Assembly: GCA_946486465.1 (NCBI GenBank)
Contig: CAMLTY010000002.1
Span: forward strand, 4,331 to 68,330
Reading direction: 5' to 3'
Length of the DNA: 64,000 nucleotides
Origin: an uncultured Mycoplasmatota bacterium
GTDB taxonomy: Bacteria > Bacillota_I > Bacilli_A > RF39 > UBA660
Shown here: piece after piece, positions 1 through 52,554 of the stretch
Numbering within the stretch: position 1 is the stretch's first letter
Layout of the letters: each line of letters starts with the position of its first letter
Translations under genes and position numbers: made by a program
The notes under the pieces: generated by a model
Databases searched by the model: none
Told to the model about the DNA's origin: nothing
What the model saw: the letters and a program-made list of their open reading frames with translations, nothing else

Positions 1-1074
1 CCAAAATGTTGGTATATCTCTAAGACCATCTTTACCACCTGCTACTGGTGTATTGATAATCTCATTATTGATAACTAAAGCACTAGAACTACCACCATCC
101 ATATTAGCAGCATTAACAGCACCATAGTTTTCCATTATCTCTGTTAAGTCTCCCATATCAGCACCAATAGATGTAGCAAGTCTTCCATTAATTACTAAGA
201 ATAAGACTATACCATCTTCTCTTTGGCCAATAGCAGTACGAGGTGCAATACCCCAACCACCATTACCTTTAACAAAACTACTCTTACCATTTACGATTAA
301 GAAAGGTCCAAACTCAATAGCATCTCTAATTCCCATAGCAAGAGCCTCATCAGCACTCATCTTACCAAGTACTAATTTATTATCTTTAGTAAAGCCAACA
401 AAGCCTCCACCCATCTGGGCATCTTCATAATCACTTACAATCTTTCCATCTTTAATGACAGTTCCATGAGGTAGGGCACCATTACTATTCCAATCAGGGT
501 CATAAAAGCCACCTGCGTTAATAGCAATAACAGCATTTTCTCTCTTTGCAACTGTAGTAATCGCTTCTCCTCTTTTACCAAGATAAGCCGTTGTCGCAAT
601 AGAAACACGAGACGGGTCATATATCGCTACTAAATAACCTTGATAGCCACTACCACTAACTTCAATAACTTTATATAAATCATTTCCTGGGTCTTTTGTT
701 AAAATTTGTTTCTCATATTCATTTTTATAAATCTTAGCATTAGTATCATAATCTTTAAAATTAATTAAATCAGGATTAGTATTTTCATCTACTTCAATTA
801 TATGATTATTAGATAACACTTCGTTAATAACATCATCATTATAAAACCAAGTAGCAAGGTATTGATGAGACATAGAAGTCATCGCTGAAGTTATCCAAAA
901 GTTACGAAAGCCACTTATCGGTCCATAAAAAAGAAATAAAGAAAGAGAACTTCCTATTATAAACAAAGCGATTATTATCTTTGTAATTAACTTTTTCTCT
1001 TTTCTTTTTTCTTTTTTTATTTCACTGGCAATACTAGGCATTAAAATTGTCTTATCCAAGTCATTTCTATTCAT
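1..1074 (-). CDS. phosphodiester glycosidase (NAGPA/DUF2233-like) family protein with N-terminal membrane anchor; 3' end runs off the window
   Basis: Own minus-strand translation (absent from ORF track because no stop lies in the window): MNRNDLDKTILMPSIASEIKKEKRKEKKLITKIIIALFIIGSSLSLFLFYGP...AINAGGFYDP...FGPFLIVNGK...GIAPRTAIGQREDG...VINGR...AANMDGGSSSALV. AGGAG lies 9 nt upstream of ATG 1074, and the ATG overlaps the stop of the upstream gene. Confidence 0.7.
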   Translation of the reverse strand, partial: MNRNDLDKTILMPSIASEIKKEKRKEKKLITKIIIALFIIGSSLSLFLFYGPISGFRNFWITSAMTSMSHQYLATWFYNDDVINEVLSNNHIIEVDENTNPDLINFKDYDTNAKIYKNEYEKQILTKDPGNDLYKVIEVSGSGYQGYLVAIYDPSRVSIATTAYLGKRGEAITTVAKRENAVIAINAGGFYDPDWNSNGALPHGTVIKDGKIVSDYEDAQMGGGFVGFTKDNKLVLGKMSADEALAMGIRDAIEFGPFLIVNGKSSFVKGNGGWGIAPRTAIGQREDGIVLFLVINGRLATSIGADMGDLTEIMENYGAVNAANMDGGSSSALVINNEIINTPVAGGKDGLRDIPTFW

Positions 1075-1705: not shown

Positions 1706-1717
1706 AAAACTACACTC

Positions 1718-3043
1718 CTAATCTTTTAAGAAATCATTCTTCTCTTGTTTTAATCTTTTTTTTATTTCTCTTTTAGTCTTTCTTTTACTACTATTCTTAG
1801 TATGTAATGCGATTAAGAAAATTATTAATAATAAAACTATTAAACAAGTAAGACCAACTATTATATATGAATTAATTTTCAACTCATCATTTAGGCTCTC
1901 TACTTCTTCAGTATAATATCTTTGGACACTCTTATCAACACTATCATATAAGTATAAACCTTTCTTACCTGTTTCAACATTCTCGCCATAGACTAAATAA
2001 TATTTAGATTTTTTATTTAATTTATAGACAGTATATTTTTCTCCATCTATAGTAACGGTATATTTCTTATAATTGGCAGGATATTTTCCTTTATCTAAAA
2101 GATGAATTATAAGGTTTCCACCACTTAACTCTTGGTATAAAGAATATTTTCCATCATCATAAGTATAAAACTTAATATTACCTTTATCATCTTTTAAAGC
2201 GACTAAAGTAAGGTCTAAGGCTTCTATTTTATAAGCAGGAACTTCTTCATCATTTATTTTAATAGTAGTCTCCACATAATAATCTTTAACTAAGTCTTTT
2301 AACTCATCACTTTTTCTAACTACACTTAAATCTTCTTTATCTACTTTTACATTAATAGGGTCTTTTTCTTTAACATTAACAACTATTGTATAAGTCTTAG
2401 TAAAACCATTTTCAGCTTCCACCACCACATTTATAGTATTAGCACCTTCTCCTACTTCTATATCACCAATACCACTAATCCTTGCCTTACTATCATTTGC
2501 CGTCGCTTTAACATTAACACTAGTAGTATCACTATCTACTTCTACTTTATAATTGGTAGTATTTTTATTAAACTCTGGGCTTAGGGAATAACCTTCTACT
2601 TCTAAACTAGCAAGGTTATTGTCACTACTATAGTTTTTCTCTACTTCCCCACGACTAATTAAATTAATTGTTGTACTATCCGTTGGACTAGTAACTACTT
2701 CATCCCAAGAAGCGATAGCCGTATTAACAACAGATATAGTAGTAGAACCAGTACCTTTAACTCTAAAAGTATAAGTATAACTTTGACTAGTTTGTCCTTC
2801 TCTATCTACATAACCAACGACATGAGTATTACCACTTAAAAGTTGTAGTTTACTACTATCATAATCTAGACTATATTCCCAACTACCTAGTCCGCTCGCT
2901 TCACTTATAGTAACTCCTACTGTAATATTACCTCCAACTGTCCCCGTTGATGTTGTCCCTGCTACTGAGATTGAAGCAGCATCAACAACAGATGGGCAAA
3001 AGAAAAGGAAGCTAAGTCCTAATATAAATAATATTTTCTTCAT
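1718..3043 (-). CDS. cohesin-domain surface scaffold with cadherin-like beta-sandwich and C-terminal TM anchor
   Basis: Signal peptide MKKILFILGLSFLFFCPSVVDA. Cohesin-like GGNITVGVTISEASGLGSWEYSLDYDSSKLQLLSG. Cadherin-like module NLASLEVEGYSLSPEFNKNTTNYKVEV...TYTIVVNV. C-terminal TM plus KR-rich tail. Confidence 0.6.
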   Translation of the reverse strand: MKKILFILGLSFLFFCPSVVDAASISVAGTTSTGTVGGNITVGVTISEASGLGSWEYSLDYDSSKLQLLSGNTHVVGYVDREGQTSQSYTYTFRVKGTGSTTISVVNTAIASWDEVVTSPTDSTTINLISRGEVEKNYSSDNNLASLEVEGYSLSPEFNKNTTNYKVEVDSDTTSVNVKATANDSKARISGIGDIEVGEGANTINVVVEAENGFTKTYTIVVNVKEKDPINVKVDKEDLSVVRKSDELKDLVKDYYVETTIKINDEEVPAYKIEALDLTLVALKDDKGNIKFYTYDDGKYSLYQELSGGNLIIHLLDKGKYPANYKKYTVTIDGEKYTVYKLNKKSKYYLVYGENVETGKKGLYLYDSVDKSVQRYYTEEVESLNDELKINSYIIVGLTCLIVLLLIIFLIALHTKNSSKRKTKREIKKRLKQEKNDFLKD

Positions 3044-3049
3044 AAAGCA

Positions 3050-4870
3050 TCATCCCTGTTCTATAACATTATTTCCTAGTAATTGTTTTTGAACTCTTAA
3101 TAAGTCAACGACATCAATCTTACCATCTCTATTAGTATCACTAGCTTTTTTATCATAAGTAGATAGACTACTACTTCCTAAAATATCTTTTTGTACTCTA
3201 AGTAAATCAAGAATACTAACTTTACCATCACCATTATTATCACCATAGATAACTACTTTATAAGACTTCGTAGTAGAACCATTAGTAATTACTAAAGTAT
3301 CCCCTGTACCAACATTACCACTAGCTTTATTTCCATATCTATCTAAATAACTAGTAACTTTCAAATTAGCATTAACACTACTTAACTTACTATTAATTAC
3401 ATCAACATTAGTATTAAAGGAAATATTAGAAATAACATCACCATCTATCTTAAAGCCTGCTCCAACCACACCTGTATTAATATCAATCTCTGGAGTTGTA
3501 ACGATTTCTTCTTCCTTATCTTCATCATCTGGAAGTATTACTTCATTATCATTAGGCATATTATTATAAACCGGTATTAAAAACTCATAACTATTTCCTA
3601 ACAAGTCATTATCTCTATAACTCTTATAAGTACTATAAGCTTCACTTGAAGCTGCTCTTATATTAGTCATATACTGATGAGTATAAGTAGGATAGACTGC
3701 ATCAGGTGCGACATTAAACTTCTGATAATATAAAGTGTTTTGACCATTATTTACATAAGCACCTACAATATAGTCAACACCACCCATAATCGCTTTTTCT
3801 TTACTATTCCAAGGCCTATTATAAGTATTAACAGAAGCATCAAAACCACCATTCGCCCAAATCAAGCCTCTAATTTGGGGAGACTTATAAGAACCATAGG
3901 CCCCAATATTAAAGTAATTATAAATGCCACTGTAAACTCTACCACTACCACAAGAGTTAAGTGCATTCCACCTATTAGGATTACTAGCATAACCTAAATT
4001 ATTTAAACAATTATTATCAACTTCATAAGTAAAAGTTTCTCCTGTAGTAGAAATACTATCGCTTGAACCTTTTTCTTGTCTAATTCTACTAGCTATATAA
4101 ACAGGACTAATATTATATGTTCTTGCTGTTTTCATTAAAATATCTAAGTATTCATTAGTATTTAAAAATGTTCCCTTAGTAACTCCTCTAACTGCATCTT
4201 CAGTATGAATAGAAGCATTATATTTAATATCTTCAAACATAAAGATATATTCTTCAGATAAAAAGTTTCTAGGGTCCAAATAATATGATACAGTATCTCT
4301 ACTAGCCACATACCAACCTGGTTCTATCTCTTGATAAACTCCATTTTGATAATATGGCCATTCTTTACTTCTCAAGCTCTCATCAGTTCCATCTACTAAA
4401 CTAATCTCCCCATAACTCTCATTAGTAACAGCAGTATCAAAATCAATATTAGTTCTCACTGCCTTAAAATTCCAATTAGGATGTTTTTCATGCAACGCCT
4501 TTAAATAAGGTAAATAACTCTCTGTAAAACCCCTACTAATCATTTCTTTTTCAAAGTCTCCATTAAGGTCAACATCAGCGGCATCTATAACTACTTGGTC
4601 ACTTGAACAAATATAACCTTCTTTTCCATTATAACTAACCTTATACCAAGAATTCTTACAACCATGACCACTGCCACCATCTTTACTAATTAAATCTACT
4701 TTCGTACCTGCAAGTAAAACTCCATCCGTAATACCATCTACAAAATCTCCTCCTGGTACTACTCTAAAATATTTATTAGTATTTAGTACTATATAACTAC
4801 TTGCATTAACATTAGGAATAAAAGTAAAAAGCATAATAAAGATTAATGAAATACAAAAAAGTTTCTTCAT
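3050..4870 (-). CDS. secreted SH3b + N-acetylglucosaminidase-type peptidoglycan hydrolase with C-terminal type I dockerin
   Basis: Signal peptide. SH3b-like SWYKVSYNGKEGYICSSDQV. Glucosaminidase-type core PVYIASRIRQEKGSS...YNYFNIGAYG. Two dockerin Ca-binding repeats DNNGDGKVSILDLLRVQK and DTNRDGKIDVVDLLRVQK. AGGAG RBS. Confidence 0.7.
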   Translation of the reverse strand: MKKLFCISLIFIMLFTFIPNVNASSYIVLNTNKYFRVVPGGDFVDGITDGVLLAGTKVDLISKDGGSGHGCKNSWYKVSYNGKEGYICSSDQVVIDAADVDLNGDFEKEMISRGFTESYLPYLKALHEKHPNWNFKAVRTNIDFDTAVTNESYGEISLVDGTDESLRSKEWPYYQNGVYQEIEPGWYVASRDTVSYYLDPRNFLSEEYIFMFEDIKYNASIHTEDAVRGVTKGTFLNTNEYLDILMKTARTYNISPVYIASRIRQEKGSSDSISTTGETFTYEVDNNCLNNLGYASNPNRWNALNSCGSGRVYSGIYNYFNIGAYGSYKSPQIRGLIWANGGFDASVNTYNRPWNSKEKAIMGGVDYIVGAYVNNGQNTLYYQKFNVAPDAVYPTYTHQYMTNIRAASSEAYSTYKSYRDNDLLGNSYEFLIPVYNNMPNDNEVILPDDEDKEEEIVTTPEIDINTGVVGAGFKIDGDVISNISFNTNVDVINSKLSSVNANLKVTSYLDRYGNKASGNVGTGDTLVITNGSTTKSYKVVIYGDNNGDGKVSILDLLRVQKDILGSSSLSTYDKKASDTNRDGKIDVVDLLRVQKQLLGNNVIEQG

Positions 4871-40331: not shown

Positions 40332-41600
40332 CTACCTTAACTTATATATAATATCTCTTGAATTACCTTGTTTTAAAATAATATTTCTATCTAACATTTC
40401 ATTTAACACAGATAAAGTAGCAACTTTTTTCATCCCCAAAATCTTTTCTATTTCTTCTCTAGTAGCATAATCTTTTTCTTTTAAATAATCTATAATTTCA
40501 ACATATTCTTTTTTTAAAGACATTTTAGGCAAAACTACTAAAAAACTGTTAGGAGCCACTTTAATCTCTGGTAACTTAGGAGAATTTCTATATAACTCAA
40601 GCATTCTAGGTATACCACTGCCATATGCTTCTACTAATCCTAATCTATGAAATATACTTATTAGTCTAGGATTTCTAGACGATGAAATACCCAACTTAAT
40701 ATCATCAATAGTTAATCCTTTAACAAGTCCCCCTAAACTTAAAAATTCCATTCTATCTGTAAAAATATTTACTATGGTACTACCTGGTATTTCATAATTA
40801 CGATGTCCAATACAATTTAATAAAACTTCTCTAATACTTTCTTCTGGATAATCATAAGTATCTATCCTTTCCATCCCCTCAATTTTTCCACTAATTCTAT
40901 TATTTAATTTTAAATAAATTAAAGCTTCTTCTAATTGTTGTAAAACACTTCCAACACTAGTTATTTTTCTATCAATAAATTCTTTTTTTACACCATCTTT
41001 ATATACAGCCATTTTTATTAAATAAGGACACTGATCTGATAATAGTAATCCTAAATTTGTATATTTATCTTTATCATTAATTATTCCTAAGGTCTTTTGT
41101 TCTCTAATACCAAAGGCAATATTTTTTTCTTTAAAAATACGTTCTGTATACATAAAAGTTAAATTTTGAGTGATACTAATATTCTTTTCAAAAGTAATTC
41201 CAGATGATTCTACAATCATATCTCTAATAGAATCTCTATTAGCAGGTTGACTAGTAGCACCTAATCTTACATAAACACCTTCACTTGTCATTCCTTTTGA
41301 TTTAATATAGTAAGGTTTATTTGTTCCTTGTAACACCTCAATAATGATAATGTCTTTCCCATCTTCTTTTTCTATTCTTGGTGCAACTAAAAAGCTAATA
41401 TCTGGTTCAATACTATCATGAAGTTTATTACTAATTTTATCTAAATCTTCTTTAGCGTTTTCTAAACCACATACACTACCATCATCATTATATCCAATAA
41501 TTATAGTACCTCCAGAGGAATTGCAAAAAGCAATAACTTCTTTTACTAAGGAATTACTTATTTCTCTTTTAAACTCTATTTTTTCATTTTCATATTTCAT
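40332..41600 (-). CDS. AlbA_2 (Schlafen-like) + HATPase_c_4 + wHTH protein (COG2865-type)
   Basis: EKIEFKREISNSLVKEVIAFCNSSGGTIIIGYNDDGSVCG, plus a C-terminal HTH-like region. Start probably ATG 41600 (GGTGA RBS); the track start is GTG 41609. Confidence 0.7.
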   Translation of the reverse strand: MKYENEKIEFKREISNSLVKEVIAFCNSSGGTIIIGYNDDGSVCGLENAKEDLDKISNKLHDSIEPDISFLVAPRIEKEDGKDIIIIEVLQGTNKPYYIKSKGMTSEGVYVRLGATSQPANRDSIRDMIVESSGITFEKNISITQNLTFMYTERIFKEKNIAFGIREQKTLGIINDKDKYTNLGLLLSDQCPYLIKMAVYKDGVKKEFIDRKITSVGSVLQQLEEALIYLKLNNRISGKIEGMERIDTYDYPEESIREVLLNCIGHRNYEIPGSTIVNIFTDRMEFLSLGGLVKGLTIDDIKLGISSSRNPRLISIFHRLGLVEAYGSGIPRMLELYRNSPKLPEIKVAPNSFLVVLPKMSLKKEYVEIIDYLKEKDYATREEIEKILGMKKVATLSVLNEMLDRNIILKQGNSRDIIYKLR

Positions 41601-41618
41601 AACATTCACCTTACATTA

Positions 41619-43976: not shown

Positions 43977-44053
43977 AACACTTCCCCTTTTCATGTCAAT
44001 AAAAGTATACCACAAATATTAATAGTTTAATATTAAAAGAAAAAGACTTGACA

Positions 44054-44524
44054 TTATTTGCCAAGTTCTTCATGCATCATTTCTTTTATTTTATCAATAT
44101 CAGTGAAAAACAAATTAATTCCTTGTTTCTTTAAAGCTAATAATGAATTAAAATTTTGTAAAATCTCATCTTTTAAATTATCAGCAACTCTAGCAGGAGC
44201 ACCATTTATTGTATGTGGATGATCTATATATTTTTCTAATGTAGGAAAAGCATTTTGCAATAATATAACAGATTTCTTTTCGGCAATTTCTCTTATCATT
44301 ATAGAACGACAATCTCCATATTTCTTAACCTTTTTATCTATTATAGGTTGATACTTAGAAACTTTACTACTTAATGGAATAAACCATAATATATCCTTAT
44401 CTTTAATCGTAAAGTAAGTAGGTCTTGCTCGTCCATTTTCATGATTTATCATTAAACCTTTGTCATTAATCTTATCAAAAAATTCATCTTTAATATGATA
44501 AATATATCCCGTTTTAACTCTCAT
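44054..44524 (-). CDS. type III toxin-antitoxin toxin, ToxN/AbiQ superfamily (CptN-like) endoribonuclease
   Basis: 156 aa. ILWFIPLSSKVSKY resembles the ToxN YLAPLTSPKK core. GGGGGTG RBS. Lies directly downstream of the RNA repeats and terminator, the canonical type III layout. Confidence 0.75.
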   Translation of the reverse strand: MRVKTGYIYHIKDEFFDKINDKGLMINHENGRARPTYFTIKDKDILWFIPLSSKVSKYQPIIDKKVKKYGDCRSIMIREIAEKKSVILLQNAFPTLEKYIDHPHTINGAPARVADNLKDEILQNFNSLLALKKQGINLFFTDIDKIKEMMHEELGK

Positions 44525-44614
44525 TTTATAAACACCCCCAATAACAAATATAACTTGTAACTAAAATATATCAAATTATAACTTTGTTTGCAAGTACAAA
44601 AGTTCTATTTTTAG

Positions 44615-44650
44615 AAAAAAGAAAACTTTATTCAAAAGAATAAAGTTTTC
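44615..44650 (-). terminator. intrinsic terminator between antitoxin repeats and toxin
   Basis: Minus-sense GAAAACTTTATTC-TTTT-GAATAAAGTTTTC (perfect 13 bp) followed by TTTTTT. Confidence 0.75.
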
Positions 44651-44651
44651 A

Positions 44652-44757
44652 AACATTTTCGACCGAGATCATTTATAACTCGCACCACTCGGAAGCGACT
44701 AACATTTCGCGATTGGAATCATTTATAACCCGCACCATCCATAAGCGGCTAACATTT
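44652..44757 (-). ncRNA. type III antitoxin RNA repeat array (2 full ~50-nt units + partial)
   Basis: Contiguous units 44701-44750 and 44652-44700, then a partial unit. No spacers, non-coding, GC-enriched, and placed between promoter and terminator. Confidence 0.75.
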
Positions 44758-44785
44758 ACATATTACATTTCTTAAATGCAATAAT

Positions 44786-44825
44786 AATATACTATATATT
44801 GACATAAATGTCAATATATAGTATA
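44786..44825 (-). promoter_or_regulatory. TA-locus promoter embedded in a perfect 17-bp-arm palindrome
   Basis: Minus-sense TTGACA (44814-44809), 17 nt, TATATT (44791-44786). Palindrome TATACTATATATTGACA-TAAA-TGTCAATATATAGTATA spans 44788..44825. Confidence 0.55.
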
Positions 44826-44876
44826 CACTGTTATTGTATGCAATTTTCCAAATATTTATAAAGATTTTTGAGATTA

Positions 44877-45127
44877 TTATTTGCCAAGTTCTTCAAATAT
44901 CATTTCTTTAATTCTATCAATATAAGTGAAAAATAAACTAATACCTTGTTTCTTTAAAGATAATAAGTAATAAAATTGCTAGTTATTTCATCTTTTAATG
45001 TATCTATTACTTTAAGTGGTTTACCATTTGTTATATGGGGATGATTTATATATTTTTCTAATGTAGGAAAAGCATTTTGTAATAATATAACCGATTTTTT
45101 ATTAGCAACTTCTCTTGTCATTATAGA
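44877..45127 (-). pseudogene. 5'-truncated, frameshifted second copy of the type III toxin gene
   Basis: Reads SIMTREVANKKSVILLQNAFPTLEKYINHPHITNGKPLKVIDTLKDEITSNF, then shifts frame. Homology to copy 1 stops at CATTATAGAA and joins directly to the terminator. Confidence 0.7.
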
Positions 45128-45162
45128 AAAAAGAAAACCCTATTCAAAAGAATAAAGTTTTC
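45127..45162 (-). terminator. degenerate copy of the TA-internal terminator
   Basis: GAAAACCCTATTC/GAATAAAGTTTTC: same hairpin with 2 mismatches in the stem, plus an A6/T6 tract. Confidence 0.45.
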
Positions 45163-45163
45163 A

Positions 45164-45269
45164 AACATTTTCGATCGGAATAATTTGTATCCCGCACCAT
45201 CCGAGAGCGGTTAACATTTCACGATTGGAATAATTTATAACCCGCACCATCCAAGAGCGGCTAACATGT
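45164..45269 (-). ncRNA. second antitoxin RNA repeat array (2 units + partial), now without a functional toxin
   Basis: Units 45213-45262 and 45164-45212 are homologous to those of locus 1. Confidence 0.6.
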
Positions 45270-45297
45270 ACATATCACATTCCTTAAATGCAATAAT

Positions 45298-45326
45298 AAT
45301 ATACTATACTTTAACAAAAATGTCAA
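45298..45326 (-). promoter_or_regulatory. promoter of the second (orphan) antitoxin array
   Basis: Minus-sense TTGACA (45326-45321), 17 nt, TATATT (45303-45298). The palindrome arm is degenerate. Confidence 0.4.
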
Positions 45327-45408
45327 TAAGTATACATTTATATTATATTCGTAGGTTTAAGAAATATAACTGTTTTTATAGTTAAAATAATAACCAAAAG
45401 ACTTGATA

Positions 45409-45846
45409 TTATTTACCAAGTCCCTTTGCTTCCCTAAACAGGCTTTCATCAATTGTTATATCTTTATCACTACCAGTTACCTTACTCAAATAGTAACGGT
45501 ATTTATCATTATCTATCTTTTCATAACCATCATTATATAATTTATTTAGCACTTCATCATCTGTACCAAATTGTTTATAGGTTAAATCTGCTAAATAATA
45601 ATTACCATCATCATCTGGTACTAAAACAAATCTATGTTTATAATGAAATTCTAAATCATCAGTATCTACTATATAAGCAAGACATGACATGTCTTTTAGA
45701 TTCTCATATAAGTACCAATTATATACTAAACACATTCTCTCATACTCTAATCCATCTAAGTCACTTTTAGTATTTTCTATTGCTTTTCTAATAATAGATT
45801 CTTTATCTATATTAGCAATATTAAGCATTCTATCATATAATGACAT
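45409..45846 (-). CDS. hypothetical protein co-transcribed with ppdK
   Basis: 145 aa. The start lies 1 nt after the ppdK stop. Ordered Cys...His...Asp (ERMCLVY, YKHRFVLV, YLADLTY). Confidence 0.5.
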   Translation of the reverse strand: MSLYDRMLNIANIDKESIIRKAIENTKSDLDGLEYERMCLVYNWYLYENLKDMSCLAYIVDTDDLEFHYKHRFVLVPDDDGNYYLADLTYKQFGTDDEVLNKLYNDGYEKIDNDKYRYYLSKVTGSDKDITIDESLFREAKGLGK

Positions 45847-50888: not shown

Positions 50889-51272
50889 TCAATTATTAAG
50901 GTCTTCTTTACTTTTTAATTTATCTATTTTCTTTTTCGATAACGGATAAAAAGTAGAAACAAAATATTCTTTTTTATCTAGTCTAACTACTACACATACG
51001 TATTGATCTACTTTTCCATAATACTTAAGACTATTTCGCTTTTCATCATATTCTACATAATAAGGACTAGAAATAATTTTATCTATATTCATTAAAGTAT
51101 TATGATAACTATCTAATGTGATGAAATCGTTAGCATGTTTATTAGTATGAATGTCCAATTTATTTGATTGTACTATTTCTTTTGAAACCACTTTTTCTAT
51201 ATTAAAACATTTTATAATATTTTCATCTAAATATCCAATTATTTTTGAAGTAAAATTTTTATTTCTAGTCAT
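50889..51272 (-). CDS. small stand-alone PBECR-like (Barnase-EndoU-ColicinE5/D-RelE fold) putative nuclease
   Basis: 127 aa from ATG 51272 (AGGAGGG 7 nt upstream). Motifs LDIHTNKHANDF...IISSPYYVEYDEKRNSLKYYGKV...VCVVVRL...FVSTFYPL. Call made from motif memory only. Confidence 0.4.
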   Translation of the reverse strand: MTRNKNFTSKIIGYLDENIIKCFNIEKVVSKEIVQSNKLDIHTNKHANDFITLDSYHNTLMNIDKIISSPYYVEYDEKRNSLKYYGKVDQYVCVVVRLDKKEYFVSTFYPLSKKKIDKLKSKEDLNN

Positions 51273-51297
51273 TAACAAACCCTCCTGTAAATTAATA

Positions 51298-51447
51298 GAG
51301 CCCACATTCAAAGAATGTAGGCTCAAGAGTAACACGGTAGGTCTCCCAGTCCCTACTTGTATTCTTTCAGGATATAACCTTACTCAGACTCACTAGTAAA
51401 TAGTAAGCGTCAGTGCAAGAAGATAATCTACACCCTCAATGTTACTC
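51298..51447 (-). promoter_or_regulatory. candidate structured 5' leader / cis-regulatory RNA
   Basis: GC-enriched island. An 8-bp closing helix (51327-51334 with 51440-51447) encloses two hairpins, followed in RNA sense by a 12-bp hairpin (51298..51324), a U-rich stretch, then the RBS. Confidence 0.3.
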
Positions 51448-51669: not shown

Positions 51670-52554
51670 CTATATCTTATAAACTTTGTTCTTACCCTGT
51701 CTTATTCTTTGAAACTGTTCTTTTAAAGTACTCTTTGTATAAAATACAGCCCCTTTTAAATCAACTTCATCATCTAAAAACTCATAGTGTCTCTTATTAC
51801 TTTCCCATACACTTTCATGCTTTTATATAAAATCATTATTAAGATAATCAGTATTTAGATTATAAATATCTCTAACTTTTCCTCTATCTTGAAGCATCTT
51901 TTCAAAATAATAAGAAAATTTATCTAAGTCATAATCTCCACCATGCAAGTGATAAATATCATAGAAGTCTTTTGTTCTTGTATTTAAAACATCTGTCTTG
52001 GTAGACTCAGCGATAATACATAATTTTTCTGCTAAAGTCTCTTCCATAGAAGGTACTACTACTTCATATTCTTCATCTTTTGAAAATATTTTAGGTACTA
52101 ATTTTAATTGTTTCTCATAAATACAAGGATGATTTTCTCTATAATCAATACCTATTGGATGATTAATCTTTCCATATTTAGCAGCGATTGGAAACTTAAT
52201 AATACCTGTATTAGGTCTTCTAGGAGCACCTCTTAAAATATAATCAAAATCATTATTTTCCTCTTTAACACACATTGCATTTACTAAAAGTATTAAAGGG
52301 TTATGATGGTCTATTGTACTAGTTAAATCTATATCGGTAATCGGTCTAACTATTTTACCTAAATGTACTGCTTGAGCAAAACTTCCTTTAACTATTATAT
52401 CCATACTTTTATCTATTTTACTTAAACGATAGAGTAAATCTCTTGAAAAGAAAGTGTTATAAACATTAGTTATACTAATATTAAGCCTTTTAGATTCTTT
52501 ATTTAAATATGACTTTAAGCTATCACAATTCTTGAATTTATTCATTAGAACCAT
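51670..52554 (-). pseudogene. AbiEii/AbiGii-family nucleotidyltransferase toxin with in-frame TAA
   Basis: IIVKGSFAQAVHLGKIVRPITDIDLTS (NTase core). TAA at 51823-51825 is followed in the same frame by 50 more codons (KHESVWESNKRHYEFLDD...GKNKVYKI*), restoring a typical length of about 294 aa. Confidence 0.6.

Follow-up and report, generated by a model that had tools for sequence, protein, structure and literature searches.

The module described here lies at 44054..44825 on the minus strand of a 64 kb stretch of a contig from an uncultured Mycoplasmatota bacterium (UBA660); this whole stretch is referred to as the window. The data make it very likely that the locus is a chromosomal toxin-antitoxin (TA) module of type III (a protein and an RNA) and of the CptIN family, acting by the mechanism proposed below, in which a repeat RNA (CptI) holds the toxin (CptN) inactive. 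An earlier reading of the letters without database searches (the sequence-only reading) had claimed the layout promoter, repeats, terminator, leader, ribosome-binding site and toxin, and every element is present at or within 1-2 nt of where it had been placed. The canonical order (promoter, repeats, terminator, ribosome-binding site, toxin) is kept, and cptN is a plain, uninterrupted ATG open reading frame (ORF) of the kind covered by a curated NCBIfam model. The array of the intact module amounts to ~2.15 units (44757..44652). The features are listed below, S1 and S2 being the first and second stems of the pseudoknot in each repeat unit.

44814..44809 and 44791..44786, minus strand: cptI promoter of the intact module, -35 TTGACA, 17-nt spacer, -10 TATATT (scan, 11/12 consensus positions)
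44763..44781, minus strand: predicted 5' stem-loop at the start of the cptI transcript, UUGCAUUU-AAG-AAAUGUAA (minimum-free-energy fold, 19 nt)
Between 5' stem-loop and unit 1, minus strand: 5-nt linker
44757..44708, minus strand: cptI unit 1, 50 nt, AAAUGUUAGCCGCUUAUGGAUGGUGCGGGUUAUAAAUGAUUCCAAUCGCG, S1 CCGC/GCGG, S2 UGGA/UCCA (covariation on 119 units)
44707..44659, minus strand: cptI unit 2, 49 nt, AAAUGUUAGUCGCUUCCGAGUGGUGCGAGUUAUAAAUGAUCUCGGUCGA, S1 UCGC/GCGA, S2 CCGAG/CUCGG
44658..44652, minus strand: partial third unit AAAUGUU, 7 nt, which would provide the 3' processing site of unit 2
44650..44621 and 44620..44615, minus strand: intrinsic terminator at the antitoxin/toxin boundary, perfect 13-bp stem with 4-nt loop, then T6
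44614..44525, minus strand: leader, 90 nt
44593..44565, minus strand: candidate own promoter of the toxin gene, TTGCAA-17-TATATT with extended -10 TG, TGATATATT (promoter scan)
44539..44533, minus strand: Shine-Dalgarno sequence GGGGGTG, 8 nt before the ATG (direct sequence reading)
44524..44054, minus strand: cptN toxin gene, 156 aa, predicted endoribonuclease, contains WFIPLSSKVSKY
44066..44046, minus strand: terminator-like hairpin over the toxin stop codon, then a T-rich run

The toxin and the antitoxin RNA

The 156-aa protein scores 157.1 bits against NCBIfam NF047359, the CptIN equivalog model (cutoff 90, E 2.7e-46), with the alignment covering model positions 1-150 of 150. Its sole significant match in the PDB is 4RMO, the CptN of Eubacterium rectale (CptN_Er), with an E value of 1.1e-18 for the single sequence and 2e-22 with a profile. 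BLASTP against CptN_Er gives 36% identity over 149 aa (E 4e-23). The toxin belongs to the CptN family by sequence. The earlier claim of a type III TA system closest to cptIN is borne out by the equivalog score, the 4RMO match and the CptI-homologous pseudoknots described below. The same reading had put the protein in the ToxN/AbiQ superfamily, and here the outcome is divided: in comparison with toxin profiles the CptN model matches but the ToxN and AbiQ models do not, and ToxN or AbiQ chains are absent from the PDB matches, even in a profile search at E <= 10. Membership of the superfamily would hold only through the published structural similarity of CptN and ToxN.

The active site of CptN_Er contains a Ser-Ser-Arg triad, Asp81, Ser85 and Tyr104, and Tyr104 specifies and stacks on the scissile adenine (PMC4627078). 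The position of the triad in the 156-aa protein was read off the alignment to CptN_Er. Ser52 and Ser53 (in a PLSS motif) and Ser85 are retained, and there are two conservative replacements (Arg53 to Lys54 and Asp81 to Glu82). In 36 homologues of 81-98% identity, Ser52, Ser53, Lys54 and His104, the residue aligned with Tyr104, are invariant or nearly so.

Upstream of the toxin gene the tandem units of ~50 nt claimed by the sequence-only reading are real, but the two units are identical at only 38/49 positions (~78%). Because of this low identity Tandem Repeats Finder (minimum score 30) reported nothing at the array, and standard repeat-finder pipelines would miss such loci. An Rfam search gave only sub-threshold chance matches, and there is no cptI family in Rfam. 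Relatives were sought in one genome per species; 344 were found and the best 80 were analysed, all of them gut metagenome-assembled genomes (MAGs) assigned to uncultured Bacilli/'Tenericutes', Clostridium sp. CAG:302/914/628 and Candidatus Onthousia. The scan of related genomes for the repeat that had been proposed from the sequence was made with a profile of the window units, and it finds a two-unit array upstream of the toxin gene in 77/80 loci (E 1e-8 to 1e-16). Nearly all relatives have exactly two units and a partial unit. Across the clade 64 units are 49 nt long, 44 are 50 nt and a few are 46-51 nt. A profile built from 119 units matched four units in the 64 kb window and nothing else (E 1e-14 to 1e-17).

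An H-type pseudoknot was tested on 119 distinct aligned units, with S1 formed by columns 11-14 and 28-31 and S2 by columns 17-21 and 44-48. Pairing is seen in 84% of cells, compared with 27-47% when the partners are slid by 1-3 columns. Double-sided changes number 193 against 77 +/- 8 in shuffles, and none of 500 shuffles attains the observed value. Several positions switch cleanly from one pair to another (U-A 65 / C-G 53 with one exception; C-G 69 / U-A 43; A-U 82 / G-C 34). Two flanking S1 pairs that were also tested (columns 9-33 and 10-32) are mostly unpaired. The covariation supports a predicted H-type pseudoknot with an A-rich second loop in each unit.

The CptI unit of E. rectale (CptI_Er) was crystallised in complex with CptN, in the form of a processed 45-nt RNA (PMC4627078), and we rebuilt it from the cloning primer in that paper: AAGUUUACCACUGACCGAUAUGUGGUAUAUAAAUGGUCGGGUUGA. 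The window units share with it the order of elements, a CC-C/G-GG first stem, a first loop of 1-2 nt, the sequence UAUAAAUG (UAUAAAU) in the long A-rich loop, the single-stranded tails and the ...GA|AA... junction. The 4-5 nt by which they are longer are located in the 5' tail, the junction between the stems and the long loop. By this shared topology, together with the loop, stem, tails and junction, the units are homologous to CptI.

The boundaries of the units are strongly conserved. AAATG follows the last full unit in essentially all of the 72 distinct arrays, with A at position 2 in 72/72 and at position 3 in 70/72. When internal and trailing boundaries are taken together, position 2 of AAAUG is A in 148/149 and position 3 is A in 146/149; position 2 may be C at the 5'-most boundary only. 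From the gapless alignment to CptI_Er, which is cut after A45, we infer that the likely CptN cut site is (A/C)A^AUGUU.

The two units differ mainly where they pair. Unit 1 and unit 2 of the window differ by 11 substitutions, ten of which fall in paired stem positions with pairing preserved. Over 65 distinct two-unit arrays, 357 differences between units lie in the 18 columns of the stems and 130 in the other ~27, and the same stem-2 sequence occurs in both units in just 3/65. In the 119 distinct units the stems are free to vary while the loops and tails are fixed. According to recent literature the repeats of toxI and of cptI are nearly identical (PMC12283969). In a cptIN locus on a Megamonas plasmid there are two almost identical 44-nt units, and in one on a Clostridium perfringens plasmid two unit types alternate, so heterogeneity of units is not unique to this clade. 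The unlikeness of the units may be under selection, which could guard against mispairing or recombination or favour rings with one of each unit, or it may simply be tolerated.

Promoters, the tandem copy and related loci

The promoter of the array is conserved. TTGAC(A/T)-N17-TATATT followed by ATTATTGCATT is found upstream of the arrays in relatives whose toxins are 70-100% identical, and equivalent 5' hairpins of other sequence, judged by eye, are present in relatives (GCATT/AATGC, GCACT/AGTGT and ACATTT/AAATGT). The terminator hairpin is kept in all relatives with compensatory changes in its stem. In the window the cptI promoter of the intact copy sits in an 18-bp perfect palindrome (44788-44805 / 44808-44825). 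Inverted repeats of other sequence, 7-10 bp long, flank the -35 hexamer in related loci L017, L022, L024, L050/L054, L069 and L078. As a clade-wide rule an inverted repeat around the -35 was rejected: the mean best stem is 4.9 compared with 4.5 in shuffled sequence, and clear flanking stems of >= 7 bp occur in only ~10/58 loci.

There is a second conserved signal between the terminator and the toxin start codon. The motif TRTGnTAnnnT is the Gram-positive extended -10, and it occurs in this gap in 48/72 distinct relatives (4.2 expected); the shorter form TGnTAnnnT occurs there in 62/72 (17.8 expected). It ends 17-28 nt before the ATG in most loci and ~40 nt before it in a long-gap class, to which the window locus belongs with a complete TTGCAA-17-TATATT and TG. 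The gap from terminator to ATG is ~45-100 nt in the clade, in contrast with ~20-25 nt in the two plasmid cptIN loci, where the extended -10 is absent and the short gap leaves no room for a toxin promoter. This suggests that in the clade the toxin probably has a weak promoter of its own besides read-through; in the window its predicted start is near 44558.

The sequence-only reading described a single locus, and this description was incomplete, because a second, decayed copy of the module (copy A) lies directly upstream of the intact one at 45328..44876 on the minus strand. Its parts are as follows.

45328..45121, minus strand: intact part of copy A, with promoter (45326..45298), 5' hairpin, units, partial unit and terminator
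45269..45220 and 45219..45171, minus strand: units A1 and A2
45162..45133, minus strand: terminator, followed by a T-run
45139..44876, minus strand: toxin remnant, residues ~70-156 (tblastn, two pieces in different frames)

Over 208 nt the intact part and its counterpart in the intact module are 87% identical. In the toxin part a ~310-nt deletion has removed the leader and ~73 N-terminal codons, so that the terminator runs straight into codon ~74. The deletion junction is at 45128-45124 with ~5 nt of microhomology, and there is a 1-nt frameshift near 44975. Repeat spacings of 512, 822 and 823 between the copies mark the deletion, and in an alignment to an intact A-type locus, L016, positions 2414-2718 of L016 are missing from copy A. 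A1 and A2 match, letter for letter, the units found in other species with a single intact module (L009, L011 and L016), and the toxin remnant is 93% identical to the toxins of loci of this type but 82% to that of the neighbouring intact gene. In both the A-type species and the B-type species (L005 and L006) this site holds a single module, with ppdK and a 145-aa ORF on one side and a GDSL-lipase gene on the other. By these sequence comparisons the window species has two tandem alleles, the older of the two toxins having been destroyed. Copy A is a second paralogue that lost its toxin to a deletion, and what is left is an orphan antitoxin array that still seems expressible.

The same deletion and frameshift are found in four other strain contigs. 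The tandem cassette (44037-45349) is 99.5-100% identical to L083-L086, whereas the flanking GDSL, 145-aa and ppdK genes are 84-97% identical, and this difference points to recent horizontal spread by recombination. Conservation of the orphan array as a sign of selection was considered and rejected, since the whole cassette, including the dead remnant, is ~100% identical among strains. In L084 two extra minus-strand genes (371 aa and 78 aa, with no Pfam match on record) lie at 1715-3099, between the 145-aa ORF and the decayed module; the pair resembles an insertion element, and this position appears to be a hot spot. The end of the 145-aa ORF with its terminator hairpin (45382-45421) and the end of the toxin gene (44027-44066) show 83% identity over 40 nt, the shared sequence being ...CTTGG(T/C)AAATAAT(A/G)TCAAGTCTTTT. 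These shared ends may be a footprint of insertion or duplication of the module at the site.

Extra arrays are not confined to the window. Of the 80 loci 19 have them, four of these from the same species as the window, and in at least 12 no toxin gene follows the additional array. Toxin-less extra arrays of 1-4 units and a terminator stand by an intact cptIN in L021, L029, L032, L040, L050, L054, L056, L061, L062, L063, L066, L068 and L071. The clade shows repeated loss of the toxin with the RNA retained. Truncated toxins with full arrays were noted earlier in cptIN by Blower et al. 2012 (PMC3401426). Some extra arrays precede unrelated genes, for example a murC-like gene or greA, and in L056 an unrelated 481-aa ORF is preceded by one unit, a terminator and an extended -10.

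Around the module in the window most genes have housekeeping or cell-envelope functions (ppdK, glycosyltransferases, GtrA and a GDSL lipase). Within 7 kb there are also genes resembling TA or defence genes: Schlafen AlbA_2 with HATPase_c_4 (40332-41609), a PBECR3 nuclease (50889-51335) and AbiEii (51823-52554). PBECR3 is a Barnase/EndoU/RelE-like nuclease and AbiEii a nucleotidyltransferase toxin. The 145-aa ORF (45409-45846), which lies between ppdK and the modules, matches no Pfam or NCBIfam family, and its position is conserved in related species; a PADLOC match of this ORF to Cas8b (E 6e-4) was treated as spurious.

The identical toxin protein is found on 129 contigs, the longest of 1.52 Mb. 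Distant CptN relatives (30-39% identity) are present on 17 plasmids; the 2012 survey recorded cptIN on chromosomes only (PMC3401426). Two of these loci, on the C. perfringens plasmid pCP346-91 (L166, ~385-640) and on a Megamonas funiformis plasmid (L165, ~520-615), carry CptN homologues of ~36% identity with arrays upstream, and both proteins are annotated as hypothetical.

Mechanism and biological role

By homology, the following molecular mechanism can be stated with confidence for the module, in a way that its biological role cannot. A strong sigma-A-type promoter would give a short non-coding precursor made up of the 5' stem-loop, two pseudoknot units, the 7-nt partial unit and the terminator. 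The 156-aa CptN would be expressed by read-through of the terminator, and a weak extended -10 promoter of its own would probably contribute. CptN would cut the precursor at the A-rich unit boundaries and stay attached to the processed pseudoknots; protein and RNA would form a closed, inactive ring, which in CptIN_Er is a 2:2 heterotetramer. When the supply of the labile RNA drops, through shut-off of transcription, phage infection or loss of the locus, free CptN would cleave cellular or phage RNA and cause growth arrest. Cleavage, inhibition, stoichiometry, toxicity and trigger at this locus are all drawn from homology to characterised family members.

Several observations weigh against this interpretation. 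CptN_Er Tyr104 is replaced by His104, which is invariant in the 36 homologues, so cleavage specificity, or at worst activity, could differ from that of CptN_Er. At 49-50 nt the units just exceed the range of 40-48 nt given for cptIN repeats in the 2012 survey (PMC3401426), the additional 1-2 nt being due to a longer 5' tail and junction. A search of Pfam-A with the toxin at E <= 0.1 returned zero families, leaving ToxN_toxin (PF13958) unmatched, and a PADLOC search at E <= 1 likewise returned zero families. An AlphaFold2 model made from 36 close homologues was too poor for a fold search (mean predicted local distance difference test score 42.9, predicted template modelling score 0.29), so the fold of the toxin is taken from sequence homology to 4RMO alone. 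The candidate separate toxin promoter is a conserved motif only.

The substituted residues could mean that the module is an inactive relic, with a catalytically dead toxin (e.g. through Tyr104 to His and Arg53 to Lys) and an RNA kept without function. Two active-site residues of CptN_Er are indeed replaced, and copy A shows that toxins decay in this region. This is very unlikely, however, given that His104, Lys54, Ser52 and Ser53 are held invariant or nearly so in the homologues, the ORF is intact in 344 species-level genomes and changes in the RNA stems are compensatory, a sign that both partners are still under selection. It is, if anything, slightly less probable still that the repeats are a cis-acting structured leader of the attenuator or riboswitch kind and not a trans-acting antitoxin. 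The array does lie in the 5' region of the toxin gene and end in a terminator, as an attenuator would, and no Rfam family was matched. Against this, the units match CptI_Er, crystallised with CptN as a processed RNA, in topology, loop and tails (PMC4627078); arrays with their own promoter and terminator persist where no toxin gene follows; and the predicted fold shows no anti-terminator pairing of the terminator hairpin with the units.

The strongest competing view accepts the same module but gives it a role other than phage defence: a selfish addiction or stabilisation cassette that works by post-segregational killing and spreads by recombination. We regard this as a possibility to be taken seriously, though one short of even chances. 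The recent horizontal spread indicated by the near-identity of the cassette among strains beside its more divergent flanks fits such a role, as does the frequency of toxin-less arrays beside intact modules, which is expected of addiction-type decay; nor does any PADLOC model match. When cptIN loci were tested in E. coli there was no phage resistance, and CptIN_Er stabilised a plasmid (PMC3401426, PMC4627078). The abortive-infection function claimed in the sequence-only reading is extrapolated from ToxIN, AbiQ and TenpIN. However, the negative phage tests used a heterologous host and unrelated coliphages, and AbiEii, the PBECR3 nuclease and Schlafen/AlbA_2 are all within 7 kb. Addiction and phage defence are also not mutually exclusive.

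The remaining evidence on this question comes from predicted viral sequences. There are zero protein or DNA matches to the locus in the INPHARED phage collection. Among IMG/VR predicted viral contigs, seven carry a cptI array and a CptN gene and two more have decayed toxins, while four (three distinct sequences) have cptI-like pseudoknot units with no CptN gene in the examined DNA. The toxin-less arrays are as follows.

L095, ~1745-1860, minus strand: toxin-less viral array
L102, ~1800-1911, minus strand: toxin-less viral array
L125, ~2700-2800, minus strand: toxin-less viral array
L106, ~330-560, plus strand: toxin-less viral array

The arrays of L095/L102 and of L125 are directly upstream of a tRNA cluster on the same strand (4-5 and 14 tRNA genes, respectively). 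L125 and L106 have homing or HNH endonuclease neighbours, and the L106 array, which adjoins an HNH endonuclease, has one unit of the 50-nt type together with one of the 45-nt type, almost identical to CptI_Er. A looser second pattern run on IMG/VR gave no additional true arrays. The sample of viral arrays is small and the viral origin of the contigs is predicted only. In phage PhiTE, antitoxin-like repeats carried by the phage (pseudo-ToxI) neutralise a type III toxin (PMC3475682). The toxin-less viral cptI-like arrays, two of them by tRNA clusters and one by an HNH endonuclease, are most easily explained as counter-defence, which argues against the addiction cassette; they could be antitoxin decoys, and that would imply that CptN acts against phages. 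If this is true, they would be the first evidence of an anti-phage role for CptIN, for which none has yet been demonstrated. A fuller picture can be drawn, in which CptIN is a real anti-phage system of gut Firmicutes engaged in an RNA-decoy arms race, the viral arrays being broad-spectrum mimics that the host counters; we think this speculative and rather unlikely. The host's counter-features could then be the non-identical units, the uncoupled toxin promoter and retained orphan arrays, copy A among them, that might buffer or cross-neutralise related toxins.

Whatever the role, a family defined in 2012 and structurally solved in 2015 gains one further system with this locus. The clade consists of hundreds of gut MAG species with alignable arrays, and amounts to a natural mutational scan of a protein-binding pseudoknot.

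Comparison with known systems

The closest known systems are CptIN_Er (PDB 4RMO; Rao et al. 2015, PMC4627078) and the cptIN loci (PMC3401426), with which the locus shares full-length toxin homology and the arrangement of promoter, about two units and a partial unit, terminator and toxin. Like CptIN_Er it is chromosomal and from gut Firmicutes, and its RNA has the same H-type pseudoknot: the first stem is of 4 bp and GC-rich, the first loop is very short, and the UAUAAAU loop and ...GA|AA... junctions are shared. It differs from CptIN_Er in having units of 49-50 nt and not 45 nt (family 40-48 nt), in the invariant His in place of Tyr104 and the Lys in place of Arg53, and in its host, which is from an uncultured, reduced-genome gut lineage of Bacilli. 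The ~78% identity of the units, with compensatory stem changes, is unlike the near-identical repeats described for cptI (PMC12283969), and the extended -10 after the terminator and the longer gap to the ATG set it apart from the two plasmid cptIN loci. The sequence-only reading had suggested a distinct subfamily; at the level of a clade this is fair, given the 36% identity to CptN_Er and the longer units, but the clade is still inside the CptIN family.

ToxIN of Pectobacterium atrosepticum and Bacillus thuringiensis has the same genetic layout and the logic proposed here, with a terminator that sets the ratio of RNA to toxin. In that logic the repeat RNA is cut by its toxin at A-rich sites (AA^AU for ToxN_Pa), and the resulting pseudoknots inhibit the toxin. 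However, no sequence similarity between the toxins was detected (Pfam, PADLOC), and in ToxI the unit is 36 nt long and present in 5.5 nearly identical copies. ToxIN forms a triangular heterohexamer, in contrast with the CptIN heterotetramer, and has demonstrated abortive-infection activity. AbiQ/antiQ of Lactococcus and TenpIN of Photorhabdus are likewise type III TA systems with arrays of ~2-3 units and an endoribonuclease toxin, and non-identical repeats have been noted for some tenpI arrays (PMC12283969). Their toxins are of other families with no sequence match to the one described here, and both have shown phage resistance whereas CptIN has not. The pseudo-ToxI of phage PhiTE (Blower et al. 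2012, PMC3475682) is the precedent by which the toxin-less viral arrays are read, but the PhiTE repeats mimic ToxI and not CptI. Taken together, these comparisons place the locus as a member of the known CptIN family and not as a new system, and its differences from the other members are modest.

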